A DNA stretch of 37,490 nucleotides from Armatimonadota bacterium (GTDB lineage: Bacteria > Armatimonadota > Chthonomonadetes > Chthonomonadales > Chthonomonadaceae): contig JAPLCR010000601.1 of NCBI GenBank assembly GCA_026392135.1, positions 1 to 37,490 on the forward strand. The letters are read 5' to 3'. Positions 5,292 to 29,934 of the stretch are shown here, one piece after another. The notes below the pieces were generated by a model, which saw nothing but the letters and a program-made list of their open reading frames with translations, was not told the DNA's origin and did no database searches. The first letter of the stretch is position 1, and each line of letters opens with the position of its first letter. The translations under genes were made by a program, and so were the position numbers.

Positions 5292-5690
5292 GTGGCAGAT
5301 ACTCGCATTCGCTACTATGGAACCGGTCATCGCAAAAACGCGGTGGCGCGAGTGTGGCTCACGCCCGGTACGGGACAAGTGACCATCAATGATCGACCTT
5401 CAACCCGCTATCTGGGACGTTTGGTGCTTGAAAAACTGATAGCGCAACCTTTTTCACAGACCAGTACCGAAGGTCGCTTCGATGTGGTGGCTAAGTGTAA
5501 GGGCGGCGGTATTTCGGGGCAAGCCGGCGCAATCCGACACGGTATCTCGAAAGCCCTTCTGGAAGTTGACCCGGACAACCGTCCTGCTCTTCGCCGAAGT
5601 GGTTTGCTTACCCGTGACCCTCGCGTTAAAGAGCGTAAGAAGTACGGACGCAAACGTGCCCGTCGTGGATTCCAGTTCAGCAAGCGTTAA
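5292..5690 (+). CDS. rpsI: 30S ribosomal protein S9
   Basis: GTG start. 132 aa with [35 protein letters not shown] and a C-terminal [17 protein letters not shown]. Confidence 0.95.
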
Positions 5691-5736: not shown

Positions 5737-5782
5737 AGGGCGGGAGATAGTTTCGGCTATCCCCCGCCCTGTTTCGCTTTTT
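5737..5782 (+). terminator. intrinsic terminator closing the ribosomal protein operon
   Basis: Stem 5737-5750 (AGGGCGGGAGATAG) pairs with 5757-5770 (CTATCCCCCGCCCT): 13 bp with one mismatch around a 6-nt loop. It is followed by GTTTCGCTTTTT. Confidence 0.8.
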
Positions 5783-5811
5783 GAGCCTCTTCCCTAAAAT
5801 GGAGCCGTGTT

Positions 5812-7056
5812 ATGTTTACGCGCCTTTCGCTTAAAAACATCAAAAGCTTTGATTCTGCCGAAATTCCTCTAGCGAATTTCACGGTTCTATTGGGTACGAA
5901 CGCCGCTGGCAAATCGAATATACGAGACACGTTTCGCTTTCTGCATGGCTTGAGTCGCGGCTATAAATTGATTGAGGTGTTTGCGGGGAAATATGAGGGC
6001 GGTGACCAGATATGGCAGGGGGTGCGTGGTGGTCCCTATGAGTTTATTACCAAAGAAGAACCTTTCGGAGTTATTGGCGTAGAGTTTAGCGAAACTAAAT
6101 CTATCTACGTTTTAAGAGTTGAAAGTATGGATAGCAAGCCCCCGCGTATTAACGCAGAAGTGCTTAGTATGGAGGGAAATATACTGTACCAAATCCAAGA
6201 CGCGGCTCCGACCTTCACAAATATAGGAATTATGGCTGAGGGCAACTTAGAAGACGAGCAAATTGTGACGGTACTACCCGATGAAGCCGTACTCCCTCAA
6301 CTTGCCGATACCCAACCTTATGAAGGTAGAGAAGACCAAAACATAAACCTCGTAAAATCGGGAGTTCGCATTACAACAGACCATTTGCGAAATATGCGTT
6401 TCCTCGACCTCTCTCCCGACGCTATGCGCGAATCCTCCTACCCGGGTCAGAATACGCTAGGCGATAGGGGGGAGAACCTCTCCACTGTCTTGCAGGATTT
6501 GGTGGAGAACAGAGGGAAGGGCGACGCGATAATCGAGTGGCTTCGCGCCCTAACCCCGATGGATGTCGCGGGGCTACGCTTTGACAGGGATAGTCGTGGG
6601 CGCGTCTCACTGACCCTCATGGAACACAATAAACGCGCCACATCCGCAGAGTCCGCCTCCGATGGCACGCTCCGCTTCCTCGCCTACCTCGCTCTCGCCT
6701 TTTCGGTAGATACACCCACAACCTGCTTCATTGAGGAGATAGATAACGGGATTCACCCCTCAAGGCTCCAACTGCTGGTCGAACTCATGGAGACGCAGTC
6801 TAAACAGGGCAAACTGCAAGTCATAGCGACTTCGCACTCGCCCGCGCTTCTCAACCTCCTCAGCCCGGAGAGTCTAGGCAACGCGGTTCTCGTCTATCGA
6901 ACGGAGGGTAGCTGCTACTCAAAGGTGAAGCCCCTGAAGGATATTCCTAATTTTAGCGAAATAGCGGAGAGGCGGCATCCCGGTACACTGATGGAATCGG
7001 GGTGGTTTGAGAACACTCTTGAGGCGTTGGAGTATGTGGAGGAGGGGGCTAAGTGA
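5812..7056 (+). CDS. ABC/SMC-type AAA ATPase (AAA_21/AAA_15-like), putative defence-system ATPase
   Basis: 414 aa with four ATPase motifs: Walker A GTNAAGKS (K34), an ABC-signature-like SDGTLRFLAYLALAF, Walker B/D-loop CFIEEIDNGIHP, and an H-loop VIATSHSPALLN. There is no nuclease or transmembrane region in this polypeptide. GGAG lies 7 nt upstream of the ATG. Confidence 0.8.
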   Translation: MFTRLSLKNIKSFDSAEIPLANFTVLLGTNAAGKSNIRDTFRFLHGLSRGYKLIEVFAGKYEGGDQIWQGVRGGPYEFITKEEPFGVIGVEFSETKSIYVLRVESMDSKPPRINAEVLSMEGNILYQIQDAAPTFTNIGIMAEGNLEDEQIVTVLPDEAVLPQLADTQPYEGREDQNINLVKSGVRITTDHLRNMRFLDLSPDAMRESSYPGQNTLGDRGENLSTVLQDLVENRGKGDAIIEWLRALTPMDVAGLRFDRDSRGRVSLTLMEHNKRATSAESASDGTLRFLAYLALAFSVDTPTTCFIEEIDNGIHPSRLQLLVELMETQSKQGKLQVIATSHSPALLNLLSPESLGNAVLVYRTEGSCYSKVKPLKDIPNFSEIAERRHPGTLMESGWFENTLEALEYVEEGAK

Positions 7057-7610
7057 AAGTTCTCATCATTCCTGAAGACCCGCGCCTTGACCAGTATATG
7101 CTAAAGCCTCTCGTAGAGGCGGCACTGAAATACGCGGGAAAGCCGAACGCGATGGTGCAGGTCTGTCAGGGTGCCTCTCTCGCTTGGGGATATGAGGCAG
7201 TCACTAACTTTGAGAATCTTAAAGGAATTATCGCAGACTACAAATATTACGACGTTTTCCTCCTGTGTGTTGACCGTGATGGTGAGAAGACGAGAGAACA
7301 GGCATTGACAAATTTGGAAATCAAAATTAGAGAGGAATTTCCAGACAAGCTCTTTATCGCTGTTTGCGGAGTCGAGGAACTAGAGGTGTGGGTGTTAGCA
7401 GGTATGACGGATTTGCCCGCCGCTTGGAGTTGGAGTGCAGTGCGCTCTGAGCGCGACCCAAAAGAGATGTACTTTGATAAGTATGTCGTAAAACGAGGTC
7501 TACTAGACTATCCCGGAAGAGGGCGTAAGGTTTTGGGCAAGGAAGCCGCAAAACTCTATACTGACCGCGTTAGGAAACTCTGTGCGGAAATTCAGGCGTG
7601 CGAAATATGA
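7053..7610 (+). CDS. small TOPRIM-like protein (DUF4276/RloB/AriB-like motif pattern), putative effector partner of the upstream ATPase
   Basis: 185 aa. GTG 7053 overlaps the ATPase stop (GTGA), with a GGAGGAGGGGG RBS at 7038-7048. The motif order is: strand-1 acidic VLIIPED (E8/D9), then LLCVDRDGE (D74-x-D76), then GVEELEVWVLAG (E108/E109/E111, W113). This is the order seen in TOPRIM/OLD-type nuclease domains. Confidence 0.6.
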   Translation: MKVLIIPEDPRLDQYMLKPLVEAALKYAGKPNAMVQVCQGASLAWGYEAVTNFENLKGIIADYKYYDVFLLCVDRDGEKTREQALTNLEIKIREEFPDKLFIAVCGVEELEVWVLAGMTDLPAAWSWSAVRSERDPKEMYFDKYVVKRGLLDYPGRGRKVLGKEAAKLYTDRVRKLCAEIQACEI

Positions 7611-7648
7611 ATAGGGTGCTACTGTGATGTGTAGGGAGGGGATTAGCG

Positions 7649-8818
7649 ATGATGAAATTTGAGCGTATCCTCCTTGTGGTGCTGGATGGGGTAGGGGCGG
7701 GAGAGCTACCCGATGCGGATCTGTATGGTGACACAGGAAGCAATACGCTCTCTCACACGGCGGAGGCGGTGGGCGGTCTGTATTTGCCGACGATGGGGGC
7801 ATTGGGGCTAGGGAATATCACCTCTATACAGGGTGTGCCTCCGACTGATACGCCGAAAGCCTCTTGGGGCAAGATGCGTGAAGCTTCTCCGGGAAAGGAC
7901 ACCATTACTGGGCACTGGGAGATGGCGGGTGTCGTTTTACCTCGCCCCTTTCCGACCTACCCGCAGGGCTTTCCGCAAGAGGTACTCTCCGCCTTCGAGG
8001 AGGCGATTGGGACGAAGACGCTTGGAAACGTCGCCGCCTCCGGTACGGTTATACTCCAAGAGCTGGGTAACGAACACTGTAGAACGGGGTTTCCTATCGT
8101 CTACACCTCGGCAGACAGCGTGTTTCAGATTGCCATGCACGAGAGGATACTCCCCATTGACCGCCAGTATGAGATTTGCGCGATTGCACGGGAGATACTG
8201 CGAGGTACACACGAAGTTGGGCGCGTGATTTGCCGTCCGTTTATCGGTGAGCAGGGACACTTTAAGCGCACTGAGGCGCGGCGCGACTTTCCTGTTACTC
8301 CGCCGCCGACAGTTCTGACTGCGTTAATGGAATCGGGGCGGCACGTCCACGCCATTGGTAAGATATTTGAAATATTTCAGGGGCAGGGGGTATCTAGTTG
8401 GGCGCATACCACTAACAATAAAGCCCATATCAGTGCGCTAATGGAGGCAGTTCAGCACTCGCAGGGTTCTCTCCTTTTTGCCAACCTAGAGGATTTCGAT
8501 ATGCTGTATGGGCATCGGAACGACCCGCAAGGCATGGCGCAAGCGTTGGAGTATTGGGATTCGCAGCTTCCGCCGATTCTGGAGGCACTGCGCCCCACTG
8601 ATCTGCTACTCCTCACTGCCGACCACGGTAACGACCCGACCACTCCTTCTACTGACCATTCTCGTGAATATCCTTTCTTGCTCGCCTACTCCCCCTGTAT
8701 CGCACAAGGAATCTGCCTTGGTGAGAGAGAAACATATGCCGACATCTCTCAGACACTCCGCGCTAACTTCTCTCTGCCTAACGGTGCGTTCGGGAGAGAG
8801 TTCTTGAGCGAACTGTAG
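7649..8818 (+). CDS. deoB: phosphopentomutase
   Basis: 389 aa with an N-terminal LLVVLDGVGAGELPDADLYGDTGSNTL, then ITGHWEMAG, and a C-terminal metal site LLLTADHGNDPT. The length is typical for DeoB. Confidence 0.9.
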   Translation: MMKFERILLVVLDGVGAGELPDADLYGDTGSNTLSHTAEAVGGLYLPTMGALGLGNITSIQGVPPTDTPKASWGKMREASPGKDTITGHWEMAGVVLPRPFPTYPQGFPQEVLSAFEEAIGTKTLGNVAASGTVILQELGNEHCRTGFPIVYTSADSVFQIAMHERILPIDRQYEICAIAREILRGTHEVGRVICRPFIGEQGHFKRTEARRDFPVTPPPTVLTALMESGRHVHAIGKIFEIFQGQGVSSWAHTTNNKAHISALMEAVQHSQGSLLFANLEDFDMLYGHRNDPQGMAQALEYWDSQLPPILEALRPTDLLLLTADHGNDPTTPSTDHSREYPFLLAYSPCIAQGICLGERETYADISQTLRANFSLPNGAFGREFLSEL

Positions 8819-8824
8819 GTTTCT

Positions 8825-10177
8825 ATGCCCAATTCACCTAAAATATCACGACGCGACTTTACTACGAAGGCGACTGCCCTCGTAGCTACTACTGCCTTAC
8901 CTCAACTGAGCATTCGGGAGCGGGTTCGGGCGGTCACATTTGCTACCACTCCCGGTGCGTTAGACAACCCGTATAAGGGCTGGTGTCCCTATACCAACGC
9001 GGGCAAAATCCTGCAACCCTACTCTATGGTCTTTCGCTATGTGACGTGGCGAGAGCTGGAACCCCGCGAGGGCGACTACCGATTCACCGAGTGGGAGCGA
9101 AGAGATTGGGAGGAGCCTCTGGCAAAGGGGAAGCATATCGTCTTTCGCGTCCATGCGGACTATCCCGGACAGCCTGTCGCGATACCAGAGTGGCTTATCA
9201 AGCGCGGAGTGAAGATGACCCGCTATAAGGAGTATGGGGGTGGGCTTTGTCCCGACTACAATAACCCAATTTTTATGGATGCCATGGAGCGTTTGATAAC
9301 TGCTTTGGGGCGACGCTACGACGGACACCCTCGTGTTGCGTTCGTTCAGTTCGGTTTTTTAGGATTTTGGGGAGAGTGGCATACCTACCCTGTCAACAAT
9401 CTCTTCGCTTCTCCTGTCAATCAAGAGAGAGTGCTTGAAGCCGGACGACGTGCTTTTCCGAATACGATACTAATGAATCGTGACCCAGCGGGAGTAGCAG
9501 GCAAAAAGCGATGGCTTGGTTACTTCGACGATATGTTTCCGGAGGATACGGATGGTGCAGAGGAGTGGAAATTCCTGCCGAAAATGCGCGTTTCAGGACG
9601 CTCTGAGAACTGGAAGAGTCAGGCAATTGGGGGGGAGATGGTTCCTGACGCGGCGAAGAAGTGGTTGGGGGATGGATTCAACATTACGATGGAGCGCCTG
9701 GAGAACGCGCACTTCAGTTGGGTGGGACCCTACTGCCCTGCGATAGAGACAGATCCCTCTGAAACGTTTATCGCACGGAGCCAACAGATGGTGCGGCGCA
9801 TGGGGTACGACTTCGCGTGGAGCCAATTAGAGATACCGCCTATCTTAACAAGCGGTGTCCTGTTCCGCTTCACGTTGCGTGGTGAAAATAGAGGTGTCGC
9901 CCCCTTTTATCATCGTTGGAAGTTGGAGTTTGCGCTACTGGATAGAAACGGGAAGCCTGTAGTACGAATCCCACTTCGTACCGATATTCGCCAGTTCATG
10001 CCGGGTGCGATACGGATTGAAGAGGAGATACTCTGTTCGGCACCCATCGGTGACTATTCGTTAGCGATAGGTCTATGCGACCCCGCAACCAATCAGCCTG
10101 GGGTCAAGTTTGGGAATGACCTTCCTGTTGTGAAAAAGTGGACGGTTTTGACCGATGTTGAGGTGAAGACGGAGTAG
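8825..10177 (+). CDS. Tat-secreted glycoside-hydrolase-like protein (DUF4832-like)
   Basis: 450 aa. It has a twin-arginine signal (SRRDFTTKATALVATTAL), then LDNPYKGWCPY and FGFLGFWGEWH motifs. These are reminiscent of TIM-barrel glycosidase-like DUF4832 proteins. The family assignment is from memory only. Confidence 0.45.
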   Translation: MPNSPKISRRDFTTKATALVATTALPQLSIRERVRAVTFATTPGALDNPYKGWCPYTNAGKILQPYSMVFRYVTWRELEPREGDYRFTEWERRDWEEPLAKGKHIVFRVHADYPGQPVAIPEWLIKRGVKMTRYKEYGGGLCPDYNNPIFMDAMERLITALGRRYDGHPRVAFVQFGFLGFWGEWHTYPVNNLFASPVNQERVLEAGRRAFPNTILMNRDPAGVAGKKRWLGYFDDMFPEDTDGAEEWKFLPKMRVSGRSENWKSQAIGGEMVPDAAKKWLGDGFNITMERLENAHFSWVGPYCPAIETDPSETFIARSQQMVRRMGYDFAWSQLEIPPILTSGVLFRFTLRGENRGVAPFYHRWKLEFALLDRNGKPVVRIPLRTDIRQFMPGAIRIEEEILCSAPIGDYSLAIGLCDPATNQPGVKFGNDLPVVKKWTVLTDVEVKTE

Positions 10178-10197
10178 CGTCTGCCTATTAGGGTATA

Positions 10198-11760
10198 ATG
10201 CGTGAACTTCAAGATTTGCTTGACGAGAGAGGGTACAAGAGCGTGAGTAGTGCGGCAGTGACACCGAACCGTGAAGAGTTTCTCCAACGTGCTCAAGAGG
10301 GCAATCTTATTCCGGTCTATCGTGAGATACTGGCAGATAGGTTAACTCCTGTCTCCGCATTTGAGCGTCTGGTTGGGCACAGTCCGAATGGCGAGAATGG
10401 CTATGCCTTTCTGTTGGAGAGCGTGGAGGGAGGAGAGCGTATTGGGCGGTACTCATTTTTGGGTATTGACCCTGCGCTAGTATTTCGGACGAAAGGCAGA
10501 GAGGTAACGACTGTTGAGAATGGCGTAACGACATACAGCCAACTGGCAGAGGGAGAAGACCCTCTTACCCTTCTGCAATCTCTGATGAGCCGCTATCAGT
10601 ATGTGGAGACTCCGGGTCTACCCAAGTTTTCTGGTGGGGCAGTAGGCTTTTTTAGCTATGATGTGGTGCGCTTCTTTGAGGAGCTACCCGATACTAAGCC
10701 CGACGAACTCGAAACAGATGACTGTTGCTTTCTTTTTACGGACTCCCTTCTTATTTTTGACCACGTTCGCCACCGCCTGAAAGTTCTTTGTAACGCGCAT
10801 ATTACCGATGATGCTGATGCTGCCTACACCTCCGCGCTTCGCAAAATTGAAGCTCTCCTCACTGTTTTGAAAACACCTGTACCGCCTGCTCCTGCTTTTC
10901 ATCGCGACCCCGCACTCAATACACCGAAGTTTGAAGCCTGCTTTCCGCGTGAGGAGTATGAGAGAGCCGTTGAGAGGTGTAAAGAGTATATTCATGCGGG
11001 GGATGCGTTTCAAATTGTGCTATCGCAACGGTTCAAGGTGGAGTTTCAAGCCCCTGTTTTTGACCTGTACCGTGCCCTTCACTCGGTTAACCCTTCACCC
11101 TATATGTACTATCTCTCGTTGGGCGGACGCAAAATCGTGGGCAGCTCGCCTGAGATACTGGTGACGGTGGAGGACGAGGTGGTGCGGGTACGCCCCATTG
11201 CTGGGACGCGCTGGCGCGGCAAAACGCCGGAAGAAGACATCGCACTTGAAGCAGAGCTTCTCACCGACGAAAAAGAGCGTGCCGAGCATATCATGCTAGT
11301 AGACTTGGGGCGCAACGACATCGGCAGGGTATGCGAATTCGGTACGGTCTCTCTGGACGAACTAATGGTGATTGAACGCTACTCCCACGTTATGCACATC
11401 GTCTCGAACGTGACGGGAAGACTCGCAAAAGACAAGACCGCATACGACGTGCTACGTGCTAGTTTTCCGGCGGGAACCGTATCGGGTGCGCCGAAAGTCC
11501 GTGCTATGCAGATTATTGATGAGTTGGAGCGGGTGCGGCGCGGCTTCTATTCGGGAGCCGTAGGGTATTTCAGCTATACGGGTAATATGGATATGGCACT
11601 TGCAATACGCACAATGCTGGTGGAGGGAAGCACCGCCTACCTACAGGCGGGGGGCGGCATTGTAGCCGACTCTGTTCCTGCTTTGGAGTATCAGGAGTGC
11701 CTGAACAAAGCGGGGGCACTACGACAGGCGATTCAGGTGGCGGAAGAGGGTTTGGATTAA
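10198..11760 (+). CDS. trpE: anthranilate synthase component I
   Basis: 520 aa with LLESVEGGERIGRYSFLG (the Trp feedback site), GDAFQIVLSQRF, GTVSGAPKVRAMQIIDELE and RGFYSGAVGYF. Confidence 0.9.
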   Translation: MRELQDLLDERGYKSVSSAAVTPNREEFLQRAQEGNLIPVYREILADRLTPVSAFERLVGHSPNGENGYAFLLESVEGGERIGRYSFLGIDPALVFRTKGREVTTVENGVTTYSQLAEGEDPLTLLQSLMSRYQYVETPGLPKFSGGAVGFFSYDVVRFFEELPDTKPDELETDDCCFLFTDSLLIFDHVRHRLKVLCNAHITDDADAAYTSALRKIEALLTVLKTPVPPAPAFHRDPALNTPKFEACFPREEYERAVERCKEYIHAGDAFQIVLSQRFKVEFQAPVFDLYRALHSVNPSPYMYYLSLGGRKIVGSSPEILVTVEDEVVRVRPIAGTRWRGKTPEEDIALEAELLTDEKERAEHIMLVDLGRNDIGRVCEFGTVSLDELMVIERYSHVMHIVSNVTGRLAKDKTAYDVLRASFPAGTVSGAPKVRAMQIIDELERVRRGFYSGAVGYFSYTGNMDMALAIRTMLVEGSTAYLQAGGGIVADSVPALEYQECLNKAGALRQAIQVAEEGLD

Positions 11761-27923: not shown

Positions 27924-28939
27924 ATGGACTACATTACGCAAATTAACGAAACTCTCATGCCAAAACCAAAGCAAGCCCCGCTTGTACTAGATTTGTTCGC
28001 GGGTTGCGGAGGGCTTGCGCTGGGATTCGAGGCGGAAGGCTTCGCAACGGTTGGTTTTGAAATGAACGCGGATGCTTGCGCTACCTATCGCCGTAACCTT
28101 CACGGAGAGTGTCACCAAGTCCGTTTAGCCCCGGAAACAGTCATTCCTGCGTCTACGGTTATTATTGGGGGCCTCCGTGTCAGCCGTTTAGCGTCGTTGG
28201 AAATCAAAAAGGAGTGGCGGACGACAGAGATGGCTTTCCCGTCTTTATCTCCGCAGTTCGCGCATTGCAACCCGATATATGGCTTTTTGAAAATGTGCGG
28301 GGGCTACTTTACCGTAGCAAATGGTACTTGGAGCAAGTCCTTTCCGAACTTCGAGAGTTGGGCTATGTAGTAGAGGTACGGCTCCTGAATGCCGCTCAGT
28401 ACGGCGTTCCGCAAAACCGTGAGCGTGTTGTAGTCGTGGGGCATCGCGGCGTTTTTCACTTTCCAAAGCCTATTTATAAAGTAGTAACAGCAGGAGAAGC
28501 ACTCATTGATTTAGCGCACATCGCCCCCCCTGAATCAAAATTTCTTACGGAGAGTATGGATAAATATATCGCAACCTATGAGCGCAAATCCCAATGCGTG
28601 AGACCGCGAGACCTTCACTTGAACACGCCTGCCCGCACCCTAACCTGTAGAAATCTTGCGGGCGCAACATCGGATATGCACCGTATTCGCCTTAGTGATG
28701 GTAGACGACGGAGGCTCCTTATTCGAGAGGCGGCAAGGCTCCAGAGCTTCCCTGACTGGTTTACTTTTGAGGGAAGCGAGGCTTCCATATTCAATCAGAT
28801 AGGAAACGCTGTACCACCCCTCATGGCGTTCCAACTCGCGAAGAGTGTCCGTGAGTACCTCGCCTCTTCCGAGCGCTTAGACGCAAAAAGCGTTCGCCGC
28901 TACGCCTCGCCTGTCCAGCCAAGCCTATTTACTTTATGA
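27924..28939 (+). pseudogene. DNA (cytosine-5)-methyltransferase of a type II R-M system; frameshifted at a G5 run as sequenced
   Basis: Motif I (DLFAGCGGLALGFE) is in the 27924 frame. Motifs IV (PPCQPFS), VI (ENVRGLL), VIII (QNRERVVVVG), IX (REAARLQSFPD) and X (GNAVPP) are in the 28109 frame. The frames meet at GGGGG 28167-28171. One extra G would read VIIGGPPCQPFS. The start is ATG 27924 or 27957. Confidence 0.85.
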
Positions 28940-29934
28940 ACTCTTTCAGAACTATCAAATTCAAAGGCGATAAGACCGAAAGCACGAGGAGGGTTATTCG
29001 TGAAGCCCTTGTCTTTTTACAACGGATAGGTGTTCCGTGCAACGGTTCTGACAGGGCTTTGGAAAAGATGGCGATGGCGTTTCTTGCCGTTGGCGATGTA
29101 AAAACATCTACCGACTGGTCGAACCTAAAAAGCGAGAGTTCAGGCAGGTCTCTAAAAACTCGCGAGATTATCAAATTCGAGAACGAAAACTTCCAAGAGG
29201 ATATTTCATCGGGGTCTTATGACGACATTCGCCGGAAAGACTTGCTCTATCTGATTGATGTAGGGGTAGTTGTCTCAACAATGCCCGATTCTGCTCGAAA
29301 CAACCCCAGTAGAGGCTATGCGATAGCGAATAATTTTGCAGAAGCCGCACGCTTTTTACCTGAAGGCGATTGGGAGACGATTGTGGCAAATTTTGTCAGT
29401 CCGAATGACACGCCAACCAATGCCTCATCTCTGCGCTATGAAGCGGTAACAGTTGTGATAACGCTACCCACAGGAGAGAGGTTAGAACTCTCTCCCGGCG
29501 AACACAACCAATTGCAAAAGGCTATAGTGGAACAGCTTCTGCCACGTTTTGCACAGGGCGCGGAAGTTCTATATTGGGGTGATGCCGCCCAAAAACGCCT
29601 TCATGTTATGCAAGAGCGACTAGAATCCCTCCGTTTTTTCGACCTCAAACATGGGGAGTTACCGGATGTCGTCGCCTATCTCTCCAATAAGAGTTGGCTG
29701 TTCCTGATTGAAGCGGTGTGCAGTAGCGGCCCTATGTCCGCCATAAGAGTTGGGAAACTGAGAACGCTAACCACCGACTGCACCGCAGGTATTGTCTACA
29801 TAACCGCGTTTTTCAGTCGTAAAGATTTCAGGAAATGGGTCGCGGAGATTGCATGGGAGACTGAGGTCTGGATTGCGGAAGAACCTGACCACCTAATACA
29901 TTTCAACGGAGACCGTTTCTTAGGTCCACGCTAA
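28936..29934 (+). CDS. type II restriction endonuclease, BsuBI/PstI family
   Basis: 332 aa. The C-terminal half carries the blocks I recall as the BsuBI/PstI family signature: GEHNQLQKAIVEQLLPRF, EVLYWGDAAQK, PDVVAYLSNKSWLFLIEAV, SSGPMS, VYITAFFSRKDFRKW, IAWETEVWIAEEPDHLIHFNGDRFLGP. The ATG overlaps the methyltransferase stop (ATGA). Confidence 0.75.
   Translation: MNSFRTIKFKGDKTESTRRVIREALVFLQRIGVPCNGSDRALEKMAMAFLAVGDVKTSTDWSNLKSESSGRSLKTREIIKFENENFQEDISSGSYDDIRRKDLLYLIDVGVVVSTMPDSARNNPSRGYAIANNFAEAARFLPEGDWETIVANFVSPNDTPTNASSLRYEAVTVVITLPTGERLELSPGEHNQLQKAIVEQLLPRFAQGAEVLYWGDAAQKRLHVMQERLESLRFFDLKHGELPDVVAYLSNKSWLFLIEAVCSSGPMSAIRVGKLRTLTTDCTAGIVYITAFFSRKDFRKWVAEIAWETEVWIAEEPDHLIHFNGDRFLGPR

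Follow-up and report, generated by a model that had tools for sequence, protein, structure and literature searches.

A pair of overlapping genes occupies positions 5,812 to 7,610 of a 37,490-nucleotide stretch of DNA from an Armatimonadota bacterium of the Chthonomonadaceae (assembly GCA_026392135.1, contig JAPLCR010000601.1, forward strand), which is referred to throughout as the window. The first, gene 1, encodes an ABC/SMC-type ATPase and the second, gene 2, a small protein of 185 amino acids (aa). An initial annotation, made from the nucleotide sequence, proposed that the two constitute an uncharacterised defence system in which an ATPase controls a separate TOPRIM nuclease, and named the PARIS, AbiL, OLD and DUF4276-type modules as possible relatives. 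Modules that join an ATPase to a TOPRIM protein recur in bacterial immunity, being found in OLD, Gabija, PARIS, AbiL and MAD3/MAD4; TOPRIM effectors cut tRNA in the case of PARIS, DNA in those of OLD and Gabija, and rRNA in that of RNase M5. Our analyses indicate that the pair is an unnamed relative of these anti-phage modules and a solid candidate for one, the architecture itself not being a new kind of system. Both open reading frames (ORFs), their coordinates and the motifs quoted for them are present as first described, and the pair is organised as follows:

5812..7056, forward strand: gene 1, an ORF of 414 aa encoding an ABC/SMC-type ATPase of the PDC-M07A clade, without a fused effector domain
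7053..7610, forward strand: gene 2, an ORF of 185 aa encoding a TOPRIM-like protein assigned to the DUF4276/MAD4/RloB clan, with a core of residues 1-125 and a helical domain of residues 127-185
7040..7045, forward strand: AGGAGG ribosome-binding site of gene 2, within the 3' end of gene 1 and 7 nucleotides (nt) before the GTG
7053..7056, forward strand: GTGA start/stop overlap, the gene 2 GTG beginning at 7053 and the gene 1 TGA occupying 7054-7056

The two genes are conserved as a unit. Eighty genome loci were retrieved with the gene 2 profile, and a homologue of gene 1 (28-67% identical) lies directly upstream on the same strand in 80/80 of them, so that the pairing is far beyond chance. 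Translational coupling, originally proposed from the GTGA overlap and from the presence of a dedicated ribosome-binding site for gene 2, was also upheld: 60 of 79 loci retain the 4-bp start/stop overlap, and in a further five the genes overlap by 1 bp. The GTG start of gene 2 is itself supported because the homologues all start at the same MKVLIIPED. At one locus (L053, 7528-10489) the ATPase and the gene 2 homologue are ~1.2 kb apart and the first 14 residues of the latter are unaligned, a gap that may represent an insertion or disruption; at another (L059, 8750-10534) the best ATPase match ends ~400 bp before gene 2.

The loci span Cyanobacteria, Chloroflexota, Planctomycetota, Acidobacteriota, several proteobacterial classes, Myxococcota, Verrucomicrobiota, Nitrospirota, Armatimonadota, a candidate-phyla-radiation bacterium and others. 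The distribution of the gene 2 family is patchy over more than 12 phyla, and genomic contexts differ even among the closest relatives. Both genes are also found on two plasmids (Brasilonema and Rathayibacter) and on a single viral contig. The Rathayibacter copy (L086; plasmid NZ_CP047178.1, 50 kb, 6001-7895) is a divergent pair, with an ATPase 28% and a partner 35% identical, and it adjoins MobC/relaxase and conjugation-related genes.

That gene 1 encodes a genuine ABC/SMC-type ATPase is borne out by Pfam matches to AAA_21 (2.7e-27; 97.1 bits against a cut-off of 27) and AAA_15 (2.6e-14; 54.1 bits against 32.1), and the expected motifs carry residues that are invariant in an alignment of 50 homologues, on which conservation was measured:

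5893..5916, forward strand: Walker A/P-loop GTNAAGKS, residues 28-35; N30, G33, K34 and S35 invariant
6199..6606, forward strand: variable middle insert of the ATPase, approximately residues 130-265; part β-rich and part helical in predicted secondary structure
6658..6681, forward strand: ABC signature-like SDGTLRFL, residues 283-290; S283 and G285-L290 invariant
6727..6759, forward strand: Walker B/D-loop FIEEIDNGIHP, residues 306-316; E308, E309, G313 and P316 invariant
6829..6843, forward strand: H-loop TSHSP, residues 340-344; H342 and S343 invariant

Given such invariance in Walker A, the signature, Walker B and the H-loop, the ATPase family is very probably catalytically active, and the description of gene 1 as an ABC ATPase that lacks an effector domain and is accompanied by a separate small protein with acidic motifs proved correct. 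The variable insert (~130-265) is a candidate sensor or partner-binding region. The AlphaFold (AF2) model of gene 1 has a predicted local distance difference test score (pLDDT) of 91.7 and a predicted template modelling score (pTM) of 0.90. When this model was searched with Foldseek, the top matches were PtuA of Septu and the retron Ec78/Ec83/Eco7 complexes (E ~1e-15, template modelling (TM) score ~0.47), with Rad50 and SMC heads ranking after PtuA and E values ranging overall from 1e-13 to 1e-15; by sequence, only PtuA (phmmer 1e-3) and Smc were detectable in the PDB.

Among PADLOC models, gene 1 is best matched by PDC-M07A (1e-76, full length), then by HEC-01A (6e-40), AriA (5e-27, partial) and AbiLi (3e-24), while mad3 returns 3.8e-18. 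The NCBIfam MAD3 model gives 1.9e-25, yet only 89.9 bits against a cut-off of 420, and NCBIfam RecF falls far below its own (19.5 bits against 172).

By comparison, gene 2 passes the threshold of no model in Pfam, NCBIfam or PADLOC; its match to PADLOC HEC-01B has E = 0.038 and there is none to mad4. A word-indexed search returned 120 homologues, all labelled 'hypothetical' and none with a Pfam domain, and when 1.84 billion representative proteins (clusters at 50% identity) were searched exhaustively with a profile, at least 801 clusters were recovered at E ≤ 1e-3, 566 of them reaching E ≤ 1e-10. Nearly all members are standalone proteins of 185-200 aa. Across 49 diverse homologues, residues E8, D13, P19, D74 and D76 are invariant, and D9, R75, E89, E109, E111, W113, W127, R131, K137, E138, G155, G157, R158 and C177 are at least 90% conserved. 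Many of these residues fall in four segments:

7059..7079, forward strand: VLIIPED, β1 followed by the invariant E8 and the conserved D9, at the position of the TOPRIM glutamate
7272..7280, forward strand: D74-R75-D76 (the DxD within CVDRDG), directly after β3 (residues 68-73); D74 and D76 invariant, R75 at least 90% conserved
7377..7391, forward strand: E109-L-E111-V-W113 (within EELEVWVLAG), after β4 (residues 100-105); the counterpart in the MAD4-like family is PELEAWVW
7431..7607, forward strand: C-terminal helical domain of gene 2, with conserved W127, R131, K137, E138, G155, G157, R158 and C177

The TOPRIM signature consists of a glutamate after β1 and a DxD motif after β3 (PMC12065111). 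In the AlphaFold (AF2) model of gene 2 (pLDDT 95.6, pTM 0.91) the predicted elements are β1 (2-7), a helix (10-27), β2 (34-37), a helix, β3 (68-73), a helix (81-95), β4 (100-105) and a further helix, followed by the helical domain of residues 127-185. This β-α-β-α-β-α-β-α succession fits that of a TOPRIM fold, which has three α/β/α layers and a parallel sheet of four strands in the order β2-β1-β3-β4. E8 is predicted to follow β1, D74-x-D76 to follow β3 and E109/E111 to follow β4, so that gene 2 has both the glutamate at the end of the first strand and the DxD after the third; in the MAD4-like family, the invariant D16 aligns with D13 of gene 2 and not with E8 (hhalign).

Several comparisons point to the same clan. 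In published work DUF4276 and RloB are counted among the families of the TOPRIM superfamily (PMC12065111), and HEC-01B is reported to have the same metal-binding site as BpOLD (bioRxiv 10.1101/2024.01.29.577857). Within the gene 2 family, DUF4276 is matched by 16 of 49 members at E ≤ 0.1 (best 1.5e-4), HEC-01B by 12 of 49 (best 7e-4) and Pfam RloB by two of 49 (best 1.2e-3), with no matches to mad4. The best Foldseek match of the gene 2 model in BFVD is an RloB-like protein (E = 1.7e-3, probability 1.0, TM 0.44). We also built a MAD4-like comparison profile, seeded on the second ATPase-linked small protein of locus L063 (PADLOC mad4 9.7e-10), and hhalign related the gene 2 profile to it at 63% (E = 7e-5), rising to 73% (E = 3e-5) with larger local profiles of 251 and 116 sequences, for which reversed-sequence controls gave 0.5-0.6%. 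Under permissive settings the two families align collinearly over their full length, pairing VLIIPED and D13 of gene 2 with LIVLAAD, VDRDG with FD..GC, ELEVWVL with PELEAWVW, PKE with DPK, and the C-terminal cysteines with one another. The MAD4-like family is itself matched by DUF4276 in just two of 36 members, where a cleaner identity had been expected, and as it is only marginally DUF4276 we place the link to gene 2 at the level of the clan. From motifs and modelled topology we read gene 2 as TOPRIM-like, a divergent protein within the DUF4276/MAD4/RloB clan that probably has a TOPRIM nuclease fold.

Of the named systems first suggested as relatives, the DUF4276-type pairs (MAD3/MAD4, HEC-01) are by sequence likeness the closest, whereas membership of PARIS, AbiL and OLD was excluded by the identity of the partner or by gene fusion, these remaining mechanistic analogues. 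MAD3/MAD4 of MADS, equivalent to HEC-01, is likewise a two-gene module in which an AAA_21-type ABC ATPase precedes a protein of ~190-210 aa; its partner and gene 2 have the collinear motifs VLxxxD, FD..G, ELE.WV, PK and C in common, and both kinds of pair occur inside Hma systems, at times side by side. They differ in that gene 1 prefers PDC-M07A (1e-76) over HEC-01A (6e-40) and lies well under the MAD3 cut-off, in that gene 2 has DRD and PED where the MAD4-like family has FD..GCG and AD, and in that most members of the family studied here are solo.

PDC-M07 is a PADLOC candidate cassette (FAM_00005>>FAM_01367) with 406 instances, as yet untested (bioRxiv 10.1101/2024.01.29.577857, supplementary file 8). 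Its ATPase belongs to the same clade as gene 1, PDC-M07A scoring 1e-76 for gene 1 and 1e-62 to 5e-67 for other ATPases of the family, but its partner, PDC-M07B, is unrelated to gene 2 (hhalign 0.8%), and neither gene 2 nor any of 49 relatives matches PDC-M07B, so that the two genes of PDC-M07 are not both present. A genuine PDC-M07 is found on the Photobacterium plasmid pAQU1 (L085; NC_016983.1, 4202-12073) inside a type I restriction-modification (RM) operon, in the order HsdM, HsdS, ATPase (PDC-M07A, 685 bits), a 161-aa PDC-M07B (9e-75, 248 bits) and HsdR. The identification of gene 2 as PDC-M07B was rejected, the genuine pAQU1 protein scoring 248 bits on its own models and being unrelated. 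That protein starts MSAICIIDTSVFLNIL, and PDC-M07B looks PIN-like from its sequence. Since the ATPases of the family score best on PDC-M07A and their partners match no PADLOC model, one ATPase clade is combined with two unrelated effectors. The pair is therefore no complete system under any PADLOC 2.0 model, only the ATPase being recognised.

PARIS supplies a mechanistic template, since its split ABC ATPase scaffold releases a nuclease on a phage trigger (PMC11464382). The AriA model matches gene 1 at 5e-27, mainly over residues 263-348, but the AriA structure is absent from the top 50 fold matches of gene 1, and AriB is a DUF4435 protein of ~35 kDa whereas gene 2 has 185 aa and no DUF4435 or AriB match (Pfam, PADLOC). 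PARIS is also frequent on phage satellites, while the present family is nearly absent from viral collections. With AbiL, AbiLi matches gene 1 at 3e-24 but gene 2 itself has no RloB (PF13707) match, and all matches to AbiLi and RloB are below family thresholds, indicating likeness at the superfamily level only. OLD proteins (P2 Old, BpOLD, GajA) carry the ABC ATPase and TOPRIM domains in a single chain, in contrast to the two separate ORFs seen here, although the N-terminal P-loop region of gene 1 matches the PADLOC Old model at 1e-12. PtuA, from Septu PtuA/PtuB and the retron Ec78/Ec83/Eco7 complexes, is the nearest match to gene 1 among solved structures. Its partner PtuB belongs to the HNH nucleases and is not a TOPRIM protein, but the present pair would resemble these systems in that an oligomeric ABC ATPase controls a small nuclease.

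The context of the pair offers a partial link to known defence. The pair lies inside an Hma system, between HmaA/HmaB and HmaC, in 11 of 80 loci (BLAST and PADLOC). One such locus (L002) has the order HmaA (E = 0), pair, HmaB-like methylase and HmaC (E = 0), and another (L058) the order OLD-like fusion, HmaB, pair and HmaC. The fusion in L058 (3791-5566) is a 592-aa OLD-like ATPase-TOPRIM protein (PADLOC Old 5.8e-24) encoded directly upstream of HmaB, so that this is an Hma locus with both a fused and a split ATPase/TOPRIM-type module. In three further loci (L061, L063 and L069) a canonical HEC-01A/mad3 and mad4 pair shares the operon with a pair of the present family, and tandem ATPase/TOPRIM pairs in one Hma locus suggest that the pairs are not redundant. 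The tandem pairs are at 8703-10570 and 13518-15430 in L063, at 12605-14487 in L061 and at 1830-3781 in L069, and in the tandem Hma-type operons the canonical pair sits immediately upstream of HmaC. Such 'guilt-by-embedding' is the argument that nominated the HEC and PDC candidates, and systems of the HEC/PDC type are often not enriched near other defence genes (bioRxiv 10.1101/2024.01.29.577857). The suggestion that homologues would cluster with defence genes held for these Hma-embedded pairs and failed as a general rule: a scan of up to two flanking genes on either side (115 proteins, 29 loci) found no general defence-island enrichment, the only recurrent defence families being Hma components and extra ABC ATPase/OLD-like genes.

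Comparison with a sister strain shows the cassette to be a divergent mosaic in closely similar surroundings. The sister locus (L087/L088, an Armatimonadota metagenome-assembled genome) has the same synteny as the window, with flanks that are 95-100% identical, rpsI 100% identical and synonymous divergence (dS) of 0.10-0.14 for three downstream genes. Within the cassette, dS is 0.60 in the insert, where the ATPase diverges most (residues 130-265, window 6200-6600; 84-86% nucleotide identity), 0.26 in residues 1-116 of gene 2 and 1.08 in residues 117-185 (window 7400-7607; 70% nucleotide identity), the fastest-diverging patch; the ratio of nonsynonymous to synonymous substitution (ω) is 0.11-0.19 throughout. 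In this one strain pair, such mosaic divergence suggests that patches were exchanged by recombination with a more remote allele while purifying selection continued to act. The homologues that come next in identity (61-67%) occupy other, unrelated genomic settings, and the cassette is thus mobile. The sister ATPase (L087 5810-7053, equivalent to window 5812-7056) has a 1-nt deletion at codon 45, where CTGCATGGC becomes CTG-ATGGC, yielding ORFs of 46 and 362 aa; its gene 2 is intact and under purifying selection. This frameshift could be a recent pseudogene or an assembly error.

With moderate confidence, we interpret the pair as a self-contained module that couples a competent PDC-M07A-clade ABC/SMC-type ATPase to a metal-dependent, nuclease-like partner of the DUF4276/MAD4/RloB clan, and that most likely serves in defence against phages or other mobile elements. 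The ATPase and small protein are co-translated. On the model of AriA/AriB and PtuA/PtuB they would associate, an ATPase oligomer keeping the effector inactive. A phage-derived trigger might then be sensed by the ATPase, probably through its variable insert, and ATP binding or hydrolysis would release or activate the TOPRIM-like protein, whose acidic site (E8, D13, D74, D76, E109 and E111) may bind metal and cut nucleic acid, either RNA or DNA. Growth arrest or abortive infection would be the expected outcome.

A number of results weigh against this interpretation. Gene 2 itself scores only 15.6 bits against Pfam DUF4276 (PF14103; E = 0.02, gathering cut-off 30.2). Searching the gene 2 model against the PDB with Foldseek placed no TOPRIM protein in the top 50, the best match being lumazine synthase (E = 7e-3), and the gene 2 family profile had no matches at E ≤ 10 among all PDB sequences. 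The gene 2 profile aligned with the OLD-type TOPRIM region of the OLD-like protein in L058 at 0.4% by hhalign, a weak negative given that it is a single-sequence comparison. The initial assignment of a TOPRIM fold is thus sustained by the order of elements and the invariant acidic residues, and is not sustained by Foldseek against the PDB, by the PDB profile search or by comparison with OLD, none of which retrieves a TOPRIM protein. As regards context, the pair in the window stands alone between rpsI and a phosphopentomutase-like gene with no Hma genes around it, and in most loci, too, the pair is solo, surrounded by housekeeping or metabolic genes. In viral collections the gene 2 family was found on one IMG/VR contig and in no GenBank phage record. 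Lastly, HEC-01, which also combines an ABC ATPase with a TOPRIM protein and is the closest such pair to have been assayed, protected against none of the phages tried in one published assay (bioRxiv 10.1101/2024.01.29.577857). From the same viral counts, a phage or virus origin of the pair is unlikely.

The alternative that best survives, though we think it unlikely, is that the pair, instead of defending autonomously, serves methylation-based systems (Hma/MADS, type I RM) as an accessory or guard and fires when a phage inhibits restriction, in the manner of PrrC with EcoprrI or of PARIS sensing Ocr, solo copies being either orphaned or guarding an unlinked system. Precedent exists in Stp, which activates PARIS and PrrC, as discussed in bioRxiv 10.1101/2024.01.29.577857. 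The 11 of 80 pairs between HmaA/HmaB and HmaC, the sister ATPase clade within a type I RM operon, the Hma loci in which the present pair and a canonical MAD3/MAD4 pair stand in tandem, and a type II RM pair ~21 kb away in the window all agree with such a role. However, ~86% of sampled loci have no Hma or RM genes adjoining the pair, no trigger is known, and both genes are under purifying selection (ω 0.12-0.19) in a solo context, which argues that the pair is maintained on its own.

A second alternative concerns gene 2 alone, which could be a Rossmann- or flavodoxin-like α/β protein of a general kind, its conserved acidic residues serving to bind a nucleotide, a small molecule or a metal in a non-nucleolytic role, for instance signal hydrolysis or sensing or substrate modification. 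Its best fold matches in the PDB are lumazine synthase, pyridoxal kinase, small GTPases and low-molecular-weight phosphatases, all weak (E 7e-3 or worse), no solved TOPRIM reached the top 50, no sequence link to an OLD-type TOPRIM or PDB chain was found, and the first motif is PED rather than the usual context of the TOPRIM glutamate. Nevertheless, a glutamate after β1, a DxD after β3 and an acidic pair after β4 constitute the TOPRIM signature (PMC12065111), the recurrent matches are only to DUF4276, HEC-01B, MAD4 and RloB, all published as TOPRIM-like, and the weak PDB matches lack these conserved residues and are not significant. We consider a non-TOPRIM identity distinctly unlikely.

It is very unlikely that the pair has a non-defence role in nucleic-acid metabolism, such as repair or replication restart in the manner of RecF/RecR or RNA processing in that of RNase M5. 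RecF is an ABC ATPase and RecR a TOPRIM protein, and RNase M5 processes RNA. The position of the pair between a ribosomal-protein/rpoA/truA/rplM/rpsI cluster and a phosphopentomutase-like gene with no mobile-element genes near, the many further loci that are solo among metabolic genes, and the lack of anti-phage activity in HEC-01 (bioRxiv 10.1101/2024.01.29.577857) would all suit a housekeeping function. Yet the distribution is sporadic and not lineage-wide, contexts differ even among the closest homologues, members occur on plasmids and inside Hma systems, the sister-strain cassette is far more divergent than its flanks and has a frameshifted ATPase, and gene 1 scores 19.5 bits where the NCBIfam RecF cut-off is 172.

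A selfish addiction (toxin-antitoxin-like) module, in which a nuclease toxin is neutralised by the ATPase and which persists through post-segregational killing or plasmid stability or exclusion, is highly improbable: the genes overlap tightly, keep strictly together and move horizontally, a plasmid copy sits beside relaxase/MobC genes, and the Pfam name of AAA_21 ties the family to an Abi/toxin-antitoxin system, but an ATPase that exceeds 400 aa and has all its catalytic motifs would be an atypical antitoxin, and embedding in defence operons fits host defence better, while abortive infection and addiction are not mutually exclusive and this explanation overlaps to that extent with the defence module that we favour.

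That defence module may be extended, speculatively and at a correspondingly low probability, to an autonomous, widespread and unnamed defence system in which a PDC-M07A-type sensor chassis has swapped a PIN-like effector for a minimal, 185-aa TOPRIM-like one. In such a system the rapidly recombining ATPase insert and the C-terminal helical domain of the effector would set the specificity for trigger or target, and the trigger or substrate would be unlike those of PARIS, the trigger being perhaps an inhibitor of methylation-based immunity and the substrate another RNA or DNA.

Although the architecture will not surprise a specialist, the size of the unmodelled family, the effector swap and the tandem Hma pairs make it a worthwhile and tractable target. 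The gene 2 family, with at least 801 clusters over more than 12 phyla, is unrecognised by Pfam, NCBIfam and PADLOC 2.0 models, and censuses of defence systems consequently undercount this ATPase and TOPRIM-like pair. It also illustrates the exchange of effectors on a fixed chassis, the PDC-M07A ATPase occurring with PDC-M07B in type I RM and with the TOPRIM-like protein either solo or in Hma. We know of no demonstrated activity, trigger or substrate for the branch with small DUF4276-like partners, and gene 2, with only 185 aa and a very confident predicted structure, is well suited to biochemistry on what proteins of the DUF4276 clan cut. Should the pair prove inactive, as HEC-01 did in its one assay, the defence label of the whole branch would come into question.

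Two further features lie upstream of gene 1:

5737..5770, strand not assigned: hairpin with a 14-bp stem containing nine G-C pairs, between the rpsI stop (5690) and gene 1, followed by TGTTTCGCTTTTT on the forward strand
5801..5804, forward strand: GGAG Shine-Dalgarno-like element, 7 nt 5' of the gene 1 ATG, read from the sequence

The 5' neighbours of the pair form a ribosomal-protein cluster with rpoA, rplQ, truA, rplM and rpsI (rpsI stop at 5690), and the 3' neighbour is the phosphopentomutase-like gene (7649-8818, Metalloenzyme family). The hairpin is 100% conserved in the sister strain; it probably terminates transcription of the ribosomal-protein operon and marks the upstream boundary of the cassette. 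Only 41 nt separate its end from the gene 1 ATG. A scan found no σ70-like promoter upstream of gene 1, although it may not cover Armatimonadota promoter types, and gene 1 may therefore rely on read-through or on an unrecognised type of promoter. The G+C content of the pair is 46-55%, against 47-58% for the window, and its base composition is not clearly foreign.

The type II RM pair is located at 28109-29934 on the forward strand, ~21 kb downstream of the gene pair. Its C5 cytosine methylase (28109-28939, an ORF of 276 aa) has PCQ and ENV motifs, the former ~23 residues from the ORF start, and this spacing suggests either that the N-terminal region with motif I is absent or that the start has been mis-called. 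The methylase is overlapped by a BsuBI/PstI-type endonuclease (28936-29934) that matches Pfam PF06616 at 3.6e-58 and PADLOC REase_II at 7.5e-73.

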